Sequence record: NC_054927.1
Direction: 5' to 3' (one strand)
DNA length: 64,000 nt
DNA from: Escherichia phage vB_EcoM_Ozark
The notes under the pieces are model-generated. The model did no database searches. It saw only the letters and a list, made by a program, of their open reading frames with translations, and was not told the origin of the DNA. Positions 6,632-26,992 of the stretch are shown here, in pieces; within the stretch, counting starts at the first letter, position 1, and each line of letters opens with the position of its first letter. A program made the position numbers and the translations under genes.

Positions 6632-6901
6632 TTATCTAAGTAAACAGTATGCTTGGAACACTTTCTCCATCATCTTTTTAAATTCATGAATATCTATATA
6701 ATGACTAGTTAGATCAGCATGATATAAAAAGTCTAAAAACTTTTCATGTGTACTAACATATTCACTTTCATTTAATTCAGAAACATGGCTTTCCCAATAT
6801 CCAACACCAGTCTTATTTGGGAAAAATGAAATTTTCATGTATTGGTCAACATAGAAAATGCCATAATTTTCAATAGTAATAGAAATATTAATAAATTTCA
6901 T
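6632..6901 (-). CDS. Hypothetical protein
   Basis: 89-aa ORF in operon orientation. Confidence 0.4.
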   Translation of the reverse strand: MKFINISITIENYGIFYVDQYMKISFFPNKTGVGYWESHVSELNESEYVSTHEKFLDFLYHADLTSHYIDIHEFKKMMEKVFQAYCLLR

Positions 6902-20366: not shown

Positions 20367-21335
20367 TTATTTCAGAAGAGTAACCTCAGCAATTTCTTCC
20401 CAACCGTTTTTGTCGGTCATAATAAAGTCAGCAAGATAAAGTGCAGTACGCAGTGAAACATTGCGTAAACGATTAACATTGACTTTCATCCATGATAATG
20501 CTTTATAAGTTTCTTCATCAGAAAGACCGCGTTTTTGCATCATGTCAGTTGAAAGAATAACATCTTCAACCCTGACCATAATTTCTTCATTAGTGTGAAC
20601 ACCCAAATCTAAATAAACTGAGCGGGAAACTAATGCTTGTAAATGTGGAGCAAGTTTAGTACCACGATCTAATTCGCGGTCAATATCAACGTTTGTGATA
20701 AAAACAATCGTTCCTTTAAATTCAAACTCACGCTCAATGCCTTTTTCTTCTAAGTAAGAAGATGCAGTGCTCCAGCAGACTTTACGGGTCTCTCCAGTGT
20801 CCAGAGCAGCTTTTAGAAGATTAAGAATGTCCATATCAGAGAAAACATCCACATCATCAATCAAAAGGACAGAATTCTCTTCACGATTATTCCAAAGCTG
20901 TTCATAAAGACCGATACCGGAGATTTTACCGTTAATGCTTTTATATTCAATGTATCCAATATCATTTGCTTTATTTAAAGCTTTATCTAAAGAATACGTT
21001 TTACCAATACCTGCCGCACCAGAGATAATTAATGAACGAATGTTTCCGTTAATAATACCATTCGTCATCATTCCCATAACATTAAATCTTTTATTAATGC
21101 GGGTTTTCATATCTTCATACGATTCTTTAACTTCTTCAACTTTTACACCATCATATGAAATGTCTGATTTGTAAACCCAAACACCGCGACGCTTACCGTC
21201 AATTTCAACAAAAACTTTACCATCTCCTTGTGCATCTACCGGAGCATTATCTGGGAACCATTCACCTAAGAGCTCAAAAGTTCCAGAGATTTCTTTACCG
21301 AAGTAGATACCCTTATTGATAGTTACAGTTTTCAT
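20367..21335 (-). CDS. P-loop ATPase (AAA-like)
   Basis: 322-aa ORF; Walker A GAAGIGKT and Walker B-like LLIDDVD; ~100-aa N-terminal domain precedes the ATPase core. Confidence 0.5.
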   Translation of the reverse strand: MKTVTINKGIYFGKEISGTFELLGEWFPDNAPVDAQGDGKVFVEIDGKRRGVWVYKSDISYDGVKVEEVKESYEDMKTRINKRFNVMGMMTNGIINGNIRSLIISGAAGIGKTYSLDKALNKANDIGYIEYKSINGKISGIGLYEQLWNNREENSVLLIDDVDVFSDMDILNLLKAALDTGETRKVCWSTASSYLEEKGIEREFEFKGTIVFITNVDIDRELDRGTKLAPHLQALVSRSVYLDLGVHTNEEIMVRVEDVILSTDMMQKRGLSDEETYKALSWMKVNVNRLRNVSLRTALYLADFIMTDKNGWEEIAEVTLLK

Positions 21336-21683: not shown

Positions 21684-21710
21684 ATAAAAAAAGGGAGCCC
21701 GAAGGCTCCC
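21684..21710 (-). terminator. Rho-independent terminator after the nucleotidyltransferase-like gene
   Basis: Hairpin GGGAGCCTTCGGGCTCCC followed by TTTTTTT on the minus strand. Confidence 0.65.
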
Positions 21711-21712
21711 TA

Positions 21713-22726
21713 TCATTTATAATAACTTCGGTGGTTTTCAAGATAGACCTTCTCAAGGAAGTCATCCCAGAAACTCATGTCTACTGTTTTAGGCATACCG
21801 TTCTTAGAAGCTTCAGTAGATGCTGCTTCTACTTGATCGACCACATCTTCCAAAAACTCTTGAACTGTTTTAAATGGATGTTTACCCAACTTCACGTCGA
21901 GAATAAATGGAGCATCTTGAAGTGGATAGACTAAGTCACCAGTTTTGTAAATTTCCAATAGTTGGAGTCCACCACGACAAGCATGACTCAAAGCTTTCCA
22001 GTCAATACCTTCATTGGCTTCAGCCTTACGAGCACGTTCACCGTATTCAGCATCTAATTTGTTCAGTGACTGCTTAAGCTCAATAAGAGAAAGCGTTGTC
22101 TGATATTTACGACCCAACACTGTGTAAAACGTCTGTGGGCCTGTTTTCTCATGATTATGGAACACCCATTCACAGAATTCGTTTTCTGGAAGACGATGCT
22201 TAATATCTTCAACTTTAGTACGACGCTGCTTAATGGAACCGTCTTCTTGGTAATCAACCCATTGCTCAGGGATTTGATTAACTACTTTCAATACATCGCG
22301 TAATGCAGCCAAACGAGAACCCTTGACACCGTATTTAGAAGCTTGCTTGCGGACATATCCTAAATAGGATTTCATGTTAGTCGTATAAAAACGAGAACGG
22401 TTGTCTTGAATAAACTTCCACACATCAGGCAAATCAGATTTAACCACTAGTTCAGGTGGAGTGTGAAGCATATCCAATGCTACAGTTTCACCATCTGCTG
22501 CTAATTTAAAGAAATATTTAAGACTGTATAGTTCATGGTCAATATCATCTTTAGTGTTTTTAGATGATGTATTGTTAGTGTTTTTACTCATGTGCTCTTT
22601 GACATTTCCGATAAGAATATCGCGAGCAGGAGGAACAAAGATTTCTTTAAAATCTACATCAGATTCTGGGGTAGAAGTTCCATAAAGATGACTACCAAAA
22701 TAGCTTTTCATTACTGTTTTCATCAT
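21713..22726 (-). CDS. Predicted nucleotidyltransferase-fold protein (Pol-beta-like GS...DVD motif)
   Basis: 337-aa ORF; N-terminal GSHLYGTSTPESDVDFKEIF resembles the minimal nucleotidyltransferase motif; followed by a largely helical C-terminal region; strong terminator just downstream. Confidence 0.45.
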   Translation of the reverse strand: MMKTVMKSYFGSHLYGTSTPESDVDFKEIFVPPARDILIGNVKEHMSKNTNNTSSKNTKDDIDHELYSLKYFFKLAADGETVALDMLHTPPELVVKSDLPDVWKFIQDNRSRFYTTNMKSYLGYVRKQASKYGVKGSRLAALRDVLKVVNQIPEQWVDYQEDGSIKQRRTKVEDIKHRLPENEFCEWVFHNHEKTGPQTFYTVLGRKYQTTLSLIELKQSLNKLDAEYGERARKAEANEGIDWKALSHACRGGLQLLEIYKTGDLVYPLQDAPFILDVKLGKHPFKTVQEFLEDVVDQVEAASTEASKNGMPKTVDMSFWDDFLEKVYLENHRSYYK

Positions 22727-23184
22727 TCAGCCTTATATTCAATAACAGGACATACTTTAGCTTTACGAGCTTTTAAAAATTCGACGATAATCGATTTCTT
22801 AGGTTGAATAGGAGGTAAACCTTTATACGCCCTATCAATATTTTCTACGTGTAAAGCATAATCCTTTTTCCATTTATAATCTTTATATTTTTCACGCAAA
22901 TGTGCAGGAATAACAAATGAACCGATAATAAGTAAAACAACCAAAAGCGCAAGTATAAATGCTGATGGAAGCAAAGTCCATAAACTACCAAAAATAAGCC
23001 AACGTTGTAGGCTTTCTGCACAAATAATTGTTAGCCCTACGAGTATAGCACATCCAAAAATAGAAACGAAAAATGTAGGAATGGCAATAGACCAAAAATA
23101 TGCGCATAGTGTCTTAGGTCGTTGCCATTCATCGTTAAACAATTTGAATAATTTATAGTGCCAAGAGTTTTCATTAATAATCAT
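22723..23184 (-). CDS. Membrane protein
   Basis: 153-aa ORF with two or three hydrophobic transmembrane segments. Confidence 0.4.
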   Translation of the reverse strand: MIINENSWHYKLFKLFNDEWQRPKTLCAYFWSIAIPTFFVSIFGCAILVGLTIICAESLQRWLIFGSLWTLLPSAFILALLVVLLIIGSFVIPAHLREKYKDYKWKKDYALHVENIDRAYKGLPPIQPKKSIIVEFLKARKAKVCPVIEYKAE

Positions 23185-23186
23185 AA

Positions 23187-23708
23187 TTATCCTTTCATTG
23201 AAGGCGTAACAGTTGTTAAATACTTAATCATAGCTTCAGCTTCTGATTTTGATAATGAAATTTCTCCATTGTTTTGACGAATAGAAATAAAATCCGGATG
23301 ACGGTCACCACCAGCTTTTAAAACACACATATAAGTATCAACTTCATCTTCAATATTTGAAATGATTGAAGCAGTTCCACATGAATGCGGTTTTTGATAA
23401 ATCAATGCAGCTTTTCTTCCGCCATTTGACTGTTCATAAACTTTTAATACATCAAACAAATCACTTCTTTTATCAATAGCTAAAATGTTATTTTCATCTT
23501 CAATGTTAAATCCTTCGGATACTTCATAAAGTGTCACCCATAAATCGCCAATATCAATAACAGCGTTCACTTTTCCATGACTTTCAAGAGCATGACAAAT
23601 TTTCTTGATTTCGTCATAACTCATTTTAATAATATCATCTCCTTGAATAAGAAAGATGTCATTTTTAAATTCAACACGAATTAAACCACTTCCACTTGAA
23701 ATAAACAT
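23187..23708 (-). CDS. Hypothetical protein, paralog of the adjacent gene
   Basis: 173-aa ORF; shares EGFNIE core and C-terminal ...EAEAMIKYLTTVTPSM with the 23715-24260 product (PGFNIE, ...EAIALKTYLDSVIPTM). Confidence 0.4.
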   Translation of the reverse strand: MFISSGSGLIRVEFKNDIFLIQGDDIIKMSYDEIKKICHALESHGKVNAVIDIGDLWVTLYEVSEGFNIEDENNILAIDKRSDLFDVLKVYEQSNGGRKAALIYQKPHSCGTASIISNIEDEVDTYMCVLKAGGDRHPDFISIRQNNGEISLSKSEAEAMIKYLTTVTPSMKG

Positions 23709-23714
23709 ATTTCC

Positions 23715-24260
23715 TCACTTTGAAATCATAGTTGGAATAACAGAATCAAGATAAGTCTTTAGTGCAATAGCTTCGTCTTTGGTAAATGTGACAATATGTG
23801 CTCGAAAATCATCAATTTGACGAATAGTTAAGACATCTCCATCTTCATAACATTTTGATACGTTTAAAACAGTTTCATCATTCTGATTGCAAGCGTTAGT
23901 AATAATAGCATTGCAATTTTTAAACCATTTTAAACTATGTTTTCTTTCATTAGAATAATAAAAATATTTAATCTTATCTATAAAACTATCCCAATGGATA
24001 ACTGATAAGCATATTGACTCGCTTTCAATATTAAATCCTGGGCATGAAGAATAAAAATGAATTTTATGCTCATCATTAATGCTTACAATTTTATCAGTAT
24101 AAGGATTTTCAATTTTGGTTAAATGAATGATTTCACTAGGCGTAAAATACAGCATATCGTCTTCTTGTGTCAAACGATACATATTATTTACTTTTTCTAT
24201 AGCTAATTCACCAAAAAGTGAACTAACTTCTAATACTAATCGTTTCGCCGCTACCGTCAT
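23715..24260 (-). CDS. Hypothetical protein, paralog of the adjacent gene
   Basis: 181-aa ORF; see 23187-23708. Confidence 0.4.
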   Translation of the reverse strand: MTVAAKRLVLEVSSLFGELAIEKVNNMYRLTQEDDMLYFTPSEIIHLTKIENPYTDKIVSINDEHKIHFYSSCPGFNIESESICLSVIHWDSFIDKIKYFYYSNERKHSLKWFKNCNAIITNACNQNDETVLNVSKCYEDGDVLTIRQIDDFRAHIVTFTKDEAIALKTYLDSVIPTMISK

Positions 24261-24587
24261 TACATACTCCTCTGAATCATATCAATAATGTTGTTCACCA
24301 GATTATAAGTAAACATTGGGTAATTATATTGAATCATTACATACACAACAAACAAAACTTTCATTCTCTTCTCCTTGGCAGTTGACAAGATTACTATACC
24401 ATAACCTTGCCAACTTGTAAACCATTAAATGACGTTTTCAATAAAATTCTGAAGCTTTGTGTGAGCATCAACCATGATTTTCATTTCTTCTTTTGCGAAA
24501 GCTGTACCTCTTTCCCGAGCAGAATACTCATAGTCAGAAACTGCATTAGCATATTCTTCAATTAGCTTCATTAAAAACATCTGCTTT

Positions 24588-24782
24588 TCAGTTTTCATTA
24601 TTCCACCTAATCATTTCAAGATATTGAACTAACTTAGCTTTGGATTTATCCAAATCTCTTTTAGCTGCTTCTATACCGTCGTATGAATATCCTTCACAAT
24701 GCTCAACTGCTAATTGATATGAATCTATTTCAATATCACGTGCTAATTTAATGATTTTTTCAAACTGTTCACGTGTTAGCAT
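24588..24782 (-). CDS. Hypothetical small protein
   Basis: 64-aa ORF. Confidence 0.3.
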   Translation of the reverse strand: MLTREQFEKIIKLARDIEIDSYQLAVEHCEGYSYDGIEAAKRDLDKSKAKLVQYLEMIRWNNEN

Positions 24783-24784
24783 AA

Positions 24785-25024
24785 TTAAACTCTCGTATTA
24801 TGATCGATAATTTCATCAAGAAACATATCTAACGCTTCTAAAGCATTATCAACTTTAGCTTCAAGTTCTTCAATACCTTTATTTGCAATGCCTGACGAAA
24901 ACCAAGCAAAGTCACTAAATTCCTCATCTGCTTTGCGAATTAAAGCTACCAATTCCTTAATTTTATCCGCTTGTTCGATACTAATCATTATTCCACCACA
25001 TATGAAAGAGAGAATATTGCACAC
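24785..25024 (-). CDS. Hypothetical small acidic protein
   Basis: 79-aa ORF. Confidence 0.3.
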
Positions 25025-25244: not shown

Positions 25245-25266
25245 AAAAAAGTCTCCCGAAGGAGAC
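25245..25266 (-). terminator. Rho-independent terminator after the rI operon
   Basis: Hairpin GTCTCCTTCGGGAGAC followed by TTTTTT on the minus strand. Confidence 0.6.
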
Positions 25267-25271
25267 TAATG

Positions 25272-25658
25272 TTATTCGAGGGAAAGAAGATACTTACTCT
25301 GATAAAACATTCCAGTAATATCATCTATCGTGCTTTGGATGGCTGGAGGCATTTCTTTATAAATGCTGTTAGATTGGTCTAGTATGCGATCAATCATTTT
25401 AATTGTGTCGGTAGGAAGTTTACTGGCATCTGGAATTGAAGGTGTGTATTTTCTACCAGAATACCCCAAATATTGCTCACCAAATTTATCAATCAAATCT
25501 GGCAACTCGGAGAAAATAAAATCGTATGCTTTGTGTCTAGCATAATTTTTAGTTTCAAAATGTGCAGAATGAAAATAAGCTTGTGCAGCCATTAATAAAC
25601 CTAAGTATTCATCTGCCTTTGAAGGTTTTCCACTTTGTGAAAAGTCGCTGAATTTCAT
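25272..25658 (-). CDS. Hypothetical protein (rI.-1 position)
   Basis: 128-aa ORF; 4-nt overlap with rI; terminator hairpin immediately downstream. Confidence 0.45.
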
Positions 25659-26806: not shown

Positions 26807-26992
26807 TTAAAGCGTATTCACATAAGCTATTAATTCGTTTTCTTTCTTATCAAACCGATCAGCAAATTCTTCCTGTTGTTCGGGAGATAGCGGGCCGTAT
26901 TCATCATAAAAGGTGTTTGCTTCTGTATGCTCATCTAGAAGTTCATGGATAAGCTCAAACAATTTATCTTTTTGTTCTTTACTCAGACTCAT
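26807..26992 (-). CDS. Hypothetical small acidic protein
   Basis: 61-aa ORF; its ATG overlaps the stop of the next ORF (ATGA). Confidence 0.35.
   Translation of the reverse strand: MSLSKEQKDKLFELIHELLDEHTEANTFYDEYGPLSPEQQEEFADRFDKKENELIAYVNTL

Follow-up and report, generated by a model that had tools for sequence, protein, structure and literature searches.

Adjacent Genes for Diverged MobD.1-like (y05I-like) Proteins at a Remodeled Tequatrovirus Locus

Organization of the Locus

The window considered here is a 64,000-nucleotide stretch of DNA from Escherichia phage vB_EcoM_Ozark (NC_054927.1), whose sequence places it in Tequatrovirus. Between positions 23100 and 24400, it is 100% identical to Escherichia phage vB_EcoM_KAW1E185 and shares at least 90% identity with 492 phage records. 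As a genome feature, the interval carries little weight because its sequence is identical to that of a published phage. Two adjacent genes on the minus strand, encoding proteins of 181 and 173 amino acids, occupy most of it. They and their surroundings comprise the following features, given from upstream to downstream:

24393..24421 (-), sigma-70/T4-early-type promoter-like site, TTTACA-17-TATAGT with an extended TG (best site of a consensus scan, 10/12 matches)
24260..24364 (-), mobD.2-like ORF of 34 aa (annotated in KAW1E185 and T4)
23715..24260 (-), 181-aa gene, ortholog of mobD.1 (T4p097; y05I family) (ORF, Pfam, phrog_1502, T4 annotation, dN/dS, AF2 model)
23949..24239 (-), N-terminal domain of the 181-aa protein, residues 8-104, two beta4-alpha units, predicted PUR/Whirly-like
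23727..23936 (-), C-terminal domain of the 181-aa protein, residues 109-178, third unit of beta-sheet plus helix (PF24448, alignments, hhalign)
23709..23714 (-), 6-nt spacer between the 181-aa and 173-aa genes (sequence)
23187..23708 (-), 173-aa gene, diverged mobD.1 paralog of the 'RB32ORF097c' type (ORF, Pfam, phrog_1502, tblastn, dN/dS, AF2 model)
23424..23705 (-), N-terminal domain of the 173-aa protein, residues 2-95
23196..23405 (-), C-terminal domain of the 173-aa protein, residues 102-171 (PF24448; model pLDDT 53-78)
22723..23184 (-), gene for a predicted membrane protein of 153 aa (phrog_944 'membrane protein', E 4e-50; synteny)
21713..22726 (-), nrdC.11 nucleotidyltransferase gene (RlaP family), last of the apparent unit (PF10127, E 3e-11; annotation)
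21692..21711 (-), intrinsic-terminator-like hairpin of 8 pairs (6 G-C) followed by a T run, after nrdC.11 (scan; putative terminator in NC_054922)

Both reading frames had been singled out in a first-pass annotation, together with an EGFNIE or PGFNIE core and the C-terminal segments KSEAEAMIKYLTTVTPSM and KDEAIALKTYLDSVIPTM, and all of these elements are present in the ORF list. The 181-aa and 173-aa genes each have an intact ORF and a ribosome-binding site. That of the 173-aa gene, GAGGAAAT, is built from the TGA stop codon of the 181-aa gene plus GGAAAT. Adjacent, carried on the same strand, and homologous over their full length, the two qualify as tandem gene duplicates. A minor feature of the junction at 23706-23717 (-) is that both ORFs lie in one reading frame, divided by a TGA and the codons GGA AAT. 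If the stop codon were read through, a six-repeat fusion protein would result; a shared frame is expected by accident one time in three.

Five genes, running from mobD.2 through the 181-aa, 173-aa, and 153-aa genes to nrdC.11, each have a Shine-Dalgarno sequence and are separated by a few bases or overlap. The mobD.2-like ORF, with the Shine-Dalgarno sequence AAGGAGAAGAGA and no Pfam match, ends in a stop codon that shares bases with the ATG of the 181-aa gene (ATGA). The gene for the 153-aa membrane protein lies directly downstream of the 173-aa gene, and this neighbor is kept in phage JS10 and in the hybrid-gene loci described below. The promoter-like site, a consensus match alone, sits upstream of mobD.2 and the paralog pair, and no consensus match to a middle (MotA-box) or late promoter occurs within the pair. 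From the arrangement of these signals, we infer a putative early operon of five genes that extends from the promoter-like site to the terminator. Hairpins at 21692-21711 and 25250-25267 bound, on the minus strand, the mobD.2-nrdC.11 unit and a mobD.5-side unit; both are G+C-rich, are followed by T runs, and give terminator scores on both strands.

Paralogy of the Two Products

BLASTP aligns residues 3-171 of the 173-aa protein with residues 12-178 of the 181-aa protein, with 51 identities in 176 positions (29%) and an E value of 2e-10. The Smith-Waterman score of the pair is 110, as compared with 31.6 +/- 5.3 in shuffles (n=2000; z 14.7), and the N-terminal domains by themselves give a z of 9.0. 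With ~23 residues trimmed from the C terminus of each protein, z is 9.8 and none of the 2000 shuffles reaches the observed score. The similarity therefore extends far beyond the C terminus, and the concern that it might be confined to a short terminal segment falls away. The first-pass annotation had described the C termini as near-identical, which was too strong: 9 of the 18 quoted residues are identical, so these segments are similar only. Its view that the proteins are otherwise diverged is too simple: the homology runs full length and takes in the same two Pfam domains.

The first of these domains, PF24449 (T4_y05I_N), is detected in the 173-aa protein with an E value of 2e-34 (118.5 bits) and in the 181-aa protein with 5e-38 (130.1 bits). 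The second, PF24448 (T4_y05I_C), gives 7e-23 (81.2 bits) and 8.5e-21 (74.5 bits), respectively. Both proteins thus score above both gathering thresholds (24.9 bits for PF24449 and 27 bits for PF24448). Pfam labels the two families 'y05I-like putative transcription factor'. In PHROGs, both proteins match phrog_1502 (no known function) with E values of 3e-67 for the 173-aa and 7e-81 for the 181-aa protein, covering positions 1-178 of the 178 in the profile. The shared Pfam domains, the common PHROG, and the same predicted three-unit topology bear out the proposed paralogy; as judged from sequence, the products are true paralogs that are homologous from end to end. Both Pfam and PHROGs already list the family, and the relationship between the two genes can be read straight from those entries. 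No third paralog was found in the 64-kb window when all six-frame ORFs were searched with phmmer and a profile HMM.

Selection and occurrence also bear on whether both genes are genuine. dN/dS is 0.25 for the 173-aa gene (window versus RB27) and 0.34 for the 181-aa gene (window versus T4), values that indicate purifying selection and maintenance of both genes where present. At the DNA level, at least 80% of both genes is covered in 365 phage records, and hundreds of phages carry them intact. An alternative in which the resemblance reflects chance or low complexity, or in which one copy is a decaying pseudogene, was rejected as extremely improbable. It could appeal to the identity of just 29% and to the frameshifts in both T2 copies (see below), but it is ruled out by the shuffles, which fail to reach the observed score even when the C terminus is removed, by Pfam scores far over the gathering thresholds, and by intact ORFs with ribosome-binding sites, the dN/dS values, and the coverage of both genes in so many records.

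Names and Known Relatives

Position and sequence identify the 181-aa gene as the T4 mobD.1 (T4p097) ortholog. Both genes are 546 nt long, both occupy the slot between mobD.2 and the nrdC.11 side, and dN between them is 0.08. With the 173-aa protein, T4 MobD.1 has the two-domain architecture in common. The T4 locus differs in that it holds one copy and has the mobD homing endonuclease gene in place of the 173-aa paralog. The 173-aa type is annotated as 'RB32ORF097c' in RB14.

The RefSeq product name of the 181-aa gene (NC_054922 KMC14_gp102) is 'molybdopterin-guanine dinucleotide biosynthesis protein MobD', and the same molybdopterin name is attached to T4 mobD.4 (NC_000866 T4p101). No MobA/MobB-type domain was found in the 181-aa protein with either Pfam or NCBIfam, and NCBIfam gives no family name for either of the two proteins. 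The molybdopterin name looks like an annotation error and is worth flagging; its likely source is the name of the T4 gene, mobD.1, given for its place next to mobile endonuclease D. In the literature on mobD.1 and y05I, no experiment on any family member was found; one review table names mobD.1, as a flank of mobD only.

Age and Origin of the Second Copy

In a neighbor-joining tree, the 173-aa clade, which includes a T2-like variant (P0010) of 56% identity, splits as deep as the MobD.1 homologs of other genera. Pairwise identities tell the same story, being 27% between the two copies and 32-36% between the 181-aa copy and its other-genus orthologs. The duplication had been called old, and a tree that places the 173-aa type at least as deep as other-genus MobD.1 orthologs agrees, so that the split of the two types can be taken as old on these comparisons.

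So deep a split might instead reflect lateral acquisition, in which a distant y05I-family gene from another T4-like phage recombined beside the resident mobD.1. We regard this origin as unlikely, although several observations are compatible with it. Identity of the 173-aa type to MobD.1 (27%) is in the range of that between MobD.1 and its homologs in other genera (26-36%), the locus exchanges alleles, as in the RB27-type N-terminal part on a conserved 3' end, and the mobD.1 locus hosts a homing endonuclease in T4. However, the 173-aa type, the T2-like variant included, is found only in Tequatrovirus and always by the mobD.1 slot, and no donor lineage appears among 1.84 billion representative proteins.

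Distribution of the Family

A profile search of these 1.84 billion representative proteins recovers only 28 family clusters: the two Tequatrovirus types, the RB27-type allele, distant full-length members (P0048, P0049, and P0063), fragments, and 12 clusters of stand-alone C-domain proteins. The stand-alone proteins correspond to unit 3 of the predicted structures (see below), are 67-87 aa long, and occur in other T4-like phages. All clusters save the fragments end in (F/L)(T/S)K-EA-AL--YLN-VIP(T/S)M. By tblastn, full-length forms are present in Tequatrovirus, in Dhakavirus (the 'MobD.1' of JS10), and in other Escherichia T4-like phages, and C-domain-only forms are present in Klebsiella and Salmonella T4-like phages. 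Salmonella phage SEA1 (Gelderlandvirus) has three C-domain-only genes of ~76-84 aa near rI (L008 3501-3957, 5763-6008), and two of these three overlap in tandem.

A single peptide pattern run against 185,579 species-representative genomes of bacteria and archaea returned no relative. The family is phage-restricted, with its absence from bacterial and archaeal genomes, as seen in one pattern scan, not to be taken as absolute.

Remodeling of the Locus

The first-pass annotation had proposed that copy number be compared among related phages. The pair is indeed common, but single, hybrid, swapped, and frameshifted states exist as well. The best tblastn match to the 173-aa gene is at least 90% identical in 432 phage records. 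With a distant family member as the query, 1159 places are found in 741 records, which implies that roughly half of the carriers have two copies. Among the loci fetched, the tandem pair was seen only in Tequatrovirus-type contigs, whereas one full-length copy is present in JS10 and in eight more contigs of the T4-like type (155-172 kb), and a C-domain gene alone in one further contig. Within Tequatrovirus, carriage of both genes is the common arrangement, at a locus that is under active remodeling.

Several forms of remodeling can be traced in individual phages. In T4 (NC_000866, ~6709-6784), the spacer, the ribosome-binding site, and ~7 initial codons of the 173-aa gene survive (ATGTTTATTTCAAGTGGAA), corresponding to window positions 23690-23714. 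Past this point, homology is lost at the gene for the mobD HNH endonuclease and returns at the start of nrdC.11. The relic and this pattern of break and resumption indicate secondary loss of the 173-aa gene and the membrane-protein gene in T4. Lying directly upstream of the mobD homing endonuclease gene, the ~7-codon relic marks an insertion/deletion boundary.

A second state is a hybrid gene of 179 aa (P0011), present in six metagenomic contigs as the sole family gene at its own locus (L004:4001-4540). It consists of the 5' 388 nt of the 181-aa type joined to the 3' 160 nt of the 173-aa type: nucleotides 3-388 are 98.4% identical to the former, and nucleotides 379-538 are 96.9% identical to the latter. 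The crossover falls in a 10-nt microhomology at equivalent positions of the two genes. Unequal crossing-over between the paralogs would produce such a gene. The upstream neighbor in these loci (L004-L006) is a Phage_tudor gene in place of mobD.2.

In RB27, the allele in the mobD.1 slot shows 31-43% identity across its first 140 residues but 90% across the final 41. The DNA on either side is ~96% identical, and the conserved flanks and 3' end together point to replacement of the allele on a conserved 3' anchor. In T2 (PV648364; L007 2458-3516), frameshifts interrupt both family genes (frames 1-2-1 and 1-3-1), which the annotation splits into several small CDS; several T2 fragment entries of the family are found in BFVD. 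Both T2 genes are apparently pseudogenes.

The pair lies in the plastic nrdC-tk segment of T4-like phages, in keeping with its earlier assignment to an accessory region. A T4 deletion that spans nrdC.11-mobD.3 is viable (PMC9825161), so the family genes are dispensable in T4. One locus documents duplication, allele swap, apparent paralog-fusing unequal crossing-over, displacement by a homing endonuclease, and pseudogenization, which makes the pair a small, well documented example of accessory-region evolution in T4-like phages.

Predicted Architecture

AF2 models were obtained for both proteins. The pLDDT is 87.4 for the 181-aa protein and 76.5 for the 173-aa protein, the latter ranging from ~90 in the N-domain to 53-78 in the C-domain. 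Both models display three units, each predicted to have four or five strands followed by a helix, and this common plan agrees with the duplication suggested at the outset, for which structure prediction had been proposed as a check. A domain of the PUR/Whirly (PC4-like type I) fold is predicted for units 1 and 2 together. The best matches of the modeled fold are Pur-alpha, MRP1/2, Whirly, and PC4/Sub1, which puts the predicted fold in the PC4-like/PUR/Whirly class, and an SsgA-like protein is also among the top matches. A fold search of BFVD yielded family members and weak, nameless Bacillus-phage matches only. Sequence comparisons give no link to these folds: neither protein has a Pfam match to the PUR, Whirly, or PC4 families at E <= 1, and a profile search of all PDB sequences gave no relevant match at E <= 10.

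Evidence that the units are repeats comes from profile comparison. Alignment of unit 1 with unit 3 by hhalign gives a probability of 93.9% (E 1.5e-7), and the C-domain HMM weakly detects unit 1 too, in both proteins. Unit 2 gives no hhalign signal with units 1 or 3, and therefore sequence-based homology can be claimed for units 1 and 3 alone. Unit 3 holds the most conserved motif of the family, which in the C-domain of the 181-aa protein reads FTKDEAxALxxYLxSVIPTM.

The presence in both models of a third repeat after the type I domain suggests a Pur-alpha-like architecture. As of 2020, Pur-alpha was the sole known combination of intramolecular and intermolecular PC4-like domain types; its repeat III forms an intermolecular dimer, and a beta4-alpha repeat would not be expected to fold on its own (review PMC7549692). 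The phage proteins differ from Pur-alpha (PUR repeats I-III; PDB 3k44, 5fgo) in lacking sequence similarity, as judged from Pfam and PDB sequence matches, in being acidic, and in having a unit 3 that is predicted to contain five strands. The type I PC4-like proteins Whirly, MRP1-MRP2, and ChmC are basic and tetrameric and bind RNA or ssDNA via lysine/arginine patches, whereas the y05I proteins have an additional third repeat and a negative net charge. Single-repeat PC4-like proteins (PC4/Sub1, YdbC, Borrelia Pur-alpha, and the T5 PC4-like protein) have no sequence relationship to the y05I proteins. SsgA/SsgB-like proteins (PDB 3cm1) are actinomycete cell-division trimers with neither a sequence nor a genomic relationship to them.

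Possible Functions and Mechanism

The observations as a whole are probably best explained by adjacent, early, non-essential Tequatrovirus genes that encode diverged MobD.1 (y05I-like) paralogs. On the basis of the models and the comparison with Pur-alpha, we infer that the products would be dimeric, early, accessory proteins that combine a conserved pairing repeat with a variable recognition domain. Unit 3 may act as the dimerization repeat, by analogy to Pur-alpha repeat III or to single-repeat PC4-like proteins; this role is suggested because a lone repeat is not expected to fold, because Pur-alpha repeat III dimerizes, and because stand-alone copies of unit 3 exist. The y05I proteins might accordingly act as homodimers and perhaps as heterodimers where both copies are present, with the variable N-domain conferring target specificity. 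The target could be a single-stranded nucleic acid, as the fold would suggest, or a host nucleic-acid-binding protein that is bound or mimicked, as the acidity would suggest; the two carry about equal weight, and each taken singly falls short of even.

The first of these targets would make the proteins conventional ssDNA/RNA-binding regulators, the 'transcription factors' of their Pfam label, comparable with Pur-alpha, Whirly, and ChmC. This is a plausible but tentative reading. It draws on the top fold matches of the models (Pur-alpha, MRP1/2, Whirly, and PC4/Sub1) and on a phage precedent, the Whirly-fold RNA binder ChmC of jumbo phages, and it would fit the neighbor nrdC.11, which belongs to an RNA-repair-associated nucleotidyltransferase family, although that adjacency may be mere synteny. 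The fold matches, however, are unaccompanied by a sequence match to the PUR, Whirly, or PC4 families. Charge is the more direct difficulty. The two proteins have pI values of 4.9 and 5.3, and full-length family members are all acidic (pI 4.2-5.3, net charge -7 to -22), with one stand-alone C-domain protein outside the pI range. The family alignments contain no invariant lysine or arginine, whereas RNA binding by ChmC depends on Lys/Arg clusters. The acidic y05I proteins are also unlike the nucleic-acid-binding surfaces of ChmC, MRP1/2, and PC4. Uniform acidity weakens the case for nucleic acid binding and is still compatible with a local basic or aromatic patch.

Alternatively, the proteins may be acidic protein-binding factors that inhibit a host nucleic-acid-binding or defense protein or mimic its substrate, with a hypervariable N-domain that tracks host targets and two paralogs that address two targets. 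This possibility, too, is credible without being the expected one. The proteins are acidic, appear from their promoter-like signal to be expressed early, and are not required under laboratory conditions. Phages that are ~96% identical elsewhere carry highly diverse N-domain alleles, and loss, fusion, and pseudogenization are frequent. There is also a structural parallel in the SsgA-like protein, in which the fold serves protein-protein contacts and is not known to serve nucleic acid binding. Selection within an allele type argues the other way, since dN/dS of 0.25-0.34 reflects purifying rather than diversifying selection.

A bolder version would combine the predicted architecture with the acidity. 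The y05I family might represent a phage-specific Pur-alpha-like plan turned acidic decoy or inhibitor, in which homo- and heterodimers assemble via the third repeat and swapping N-domains hit different host proteins. We consider this improbable; if true, the pair would be a combinatorial host-takeover or anti-defense module. For the preferred reading of dimeric accessory proteins, the added value lies in a predicted three-repeat, PUR-like architecture for an uncharacterized T4 early protein, together with the record of remodeling at its locus.

Neighboring Genes

The surrounding early region contains several other genes of interest. On the distal side of nrdC.11, an nrdC.10 homolog of 322 aa (20367-21335, (-)) has weak AAA/STAND-NTPase matches, such as AAA_14 (E 6e-5) and nSTAND3 (E 5e-4), all under Pfam thresholds. 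At 25272-25658 (-), an rI.-1 homolog carries the RefSeq label 'starvation-inducible transcriptional regulator'; Pfam gives only DUF5856 (E 1e-32), and this label, too, may be without support. In the mobD.2a/.3/.4 region at 24425-24988 (-), three ORFs in a row (57, 64, and 67 aa) match Pfam DUF7438, as does an ORF of 61 aa beyond tk at 26807-26992 (-), with E values for all four that range from 1e-15 to 3e-19. The DUF7438 genes form a second group of small paralogous early genes, spread on both sides of rI/tk.
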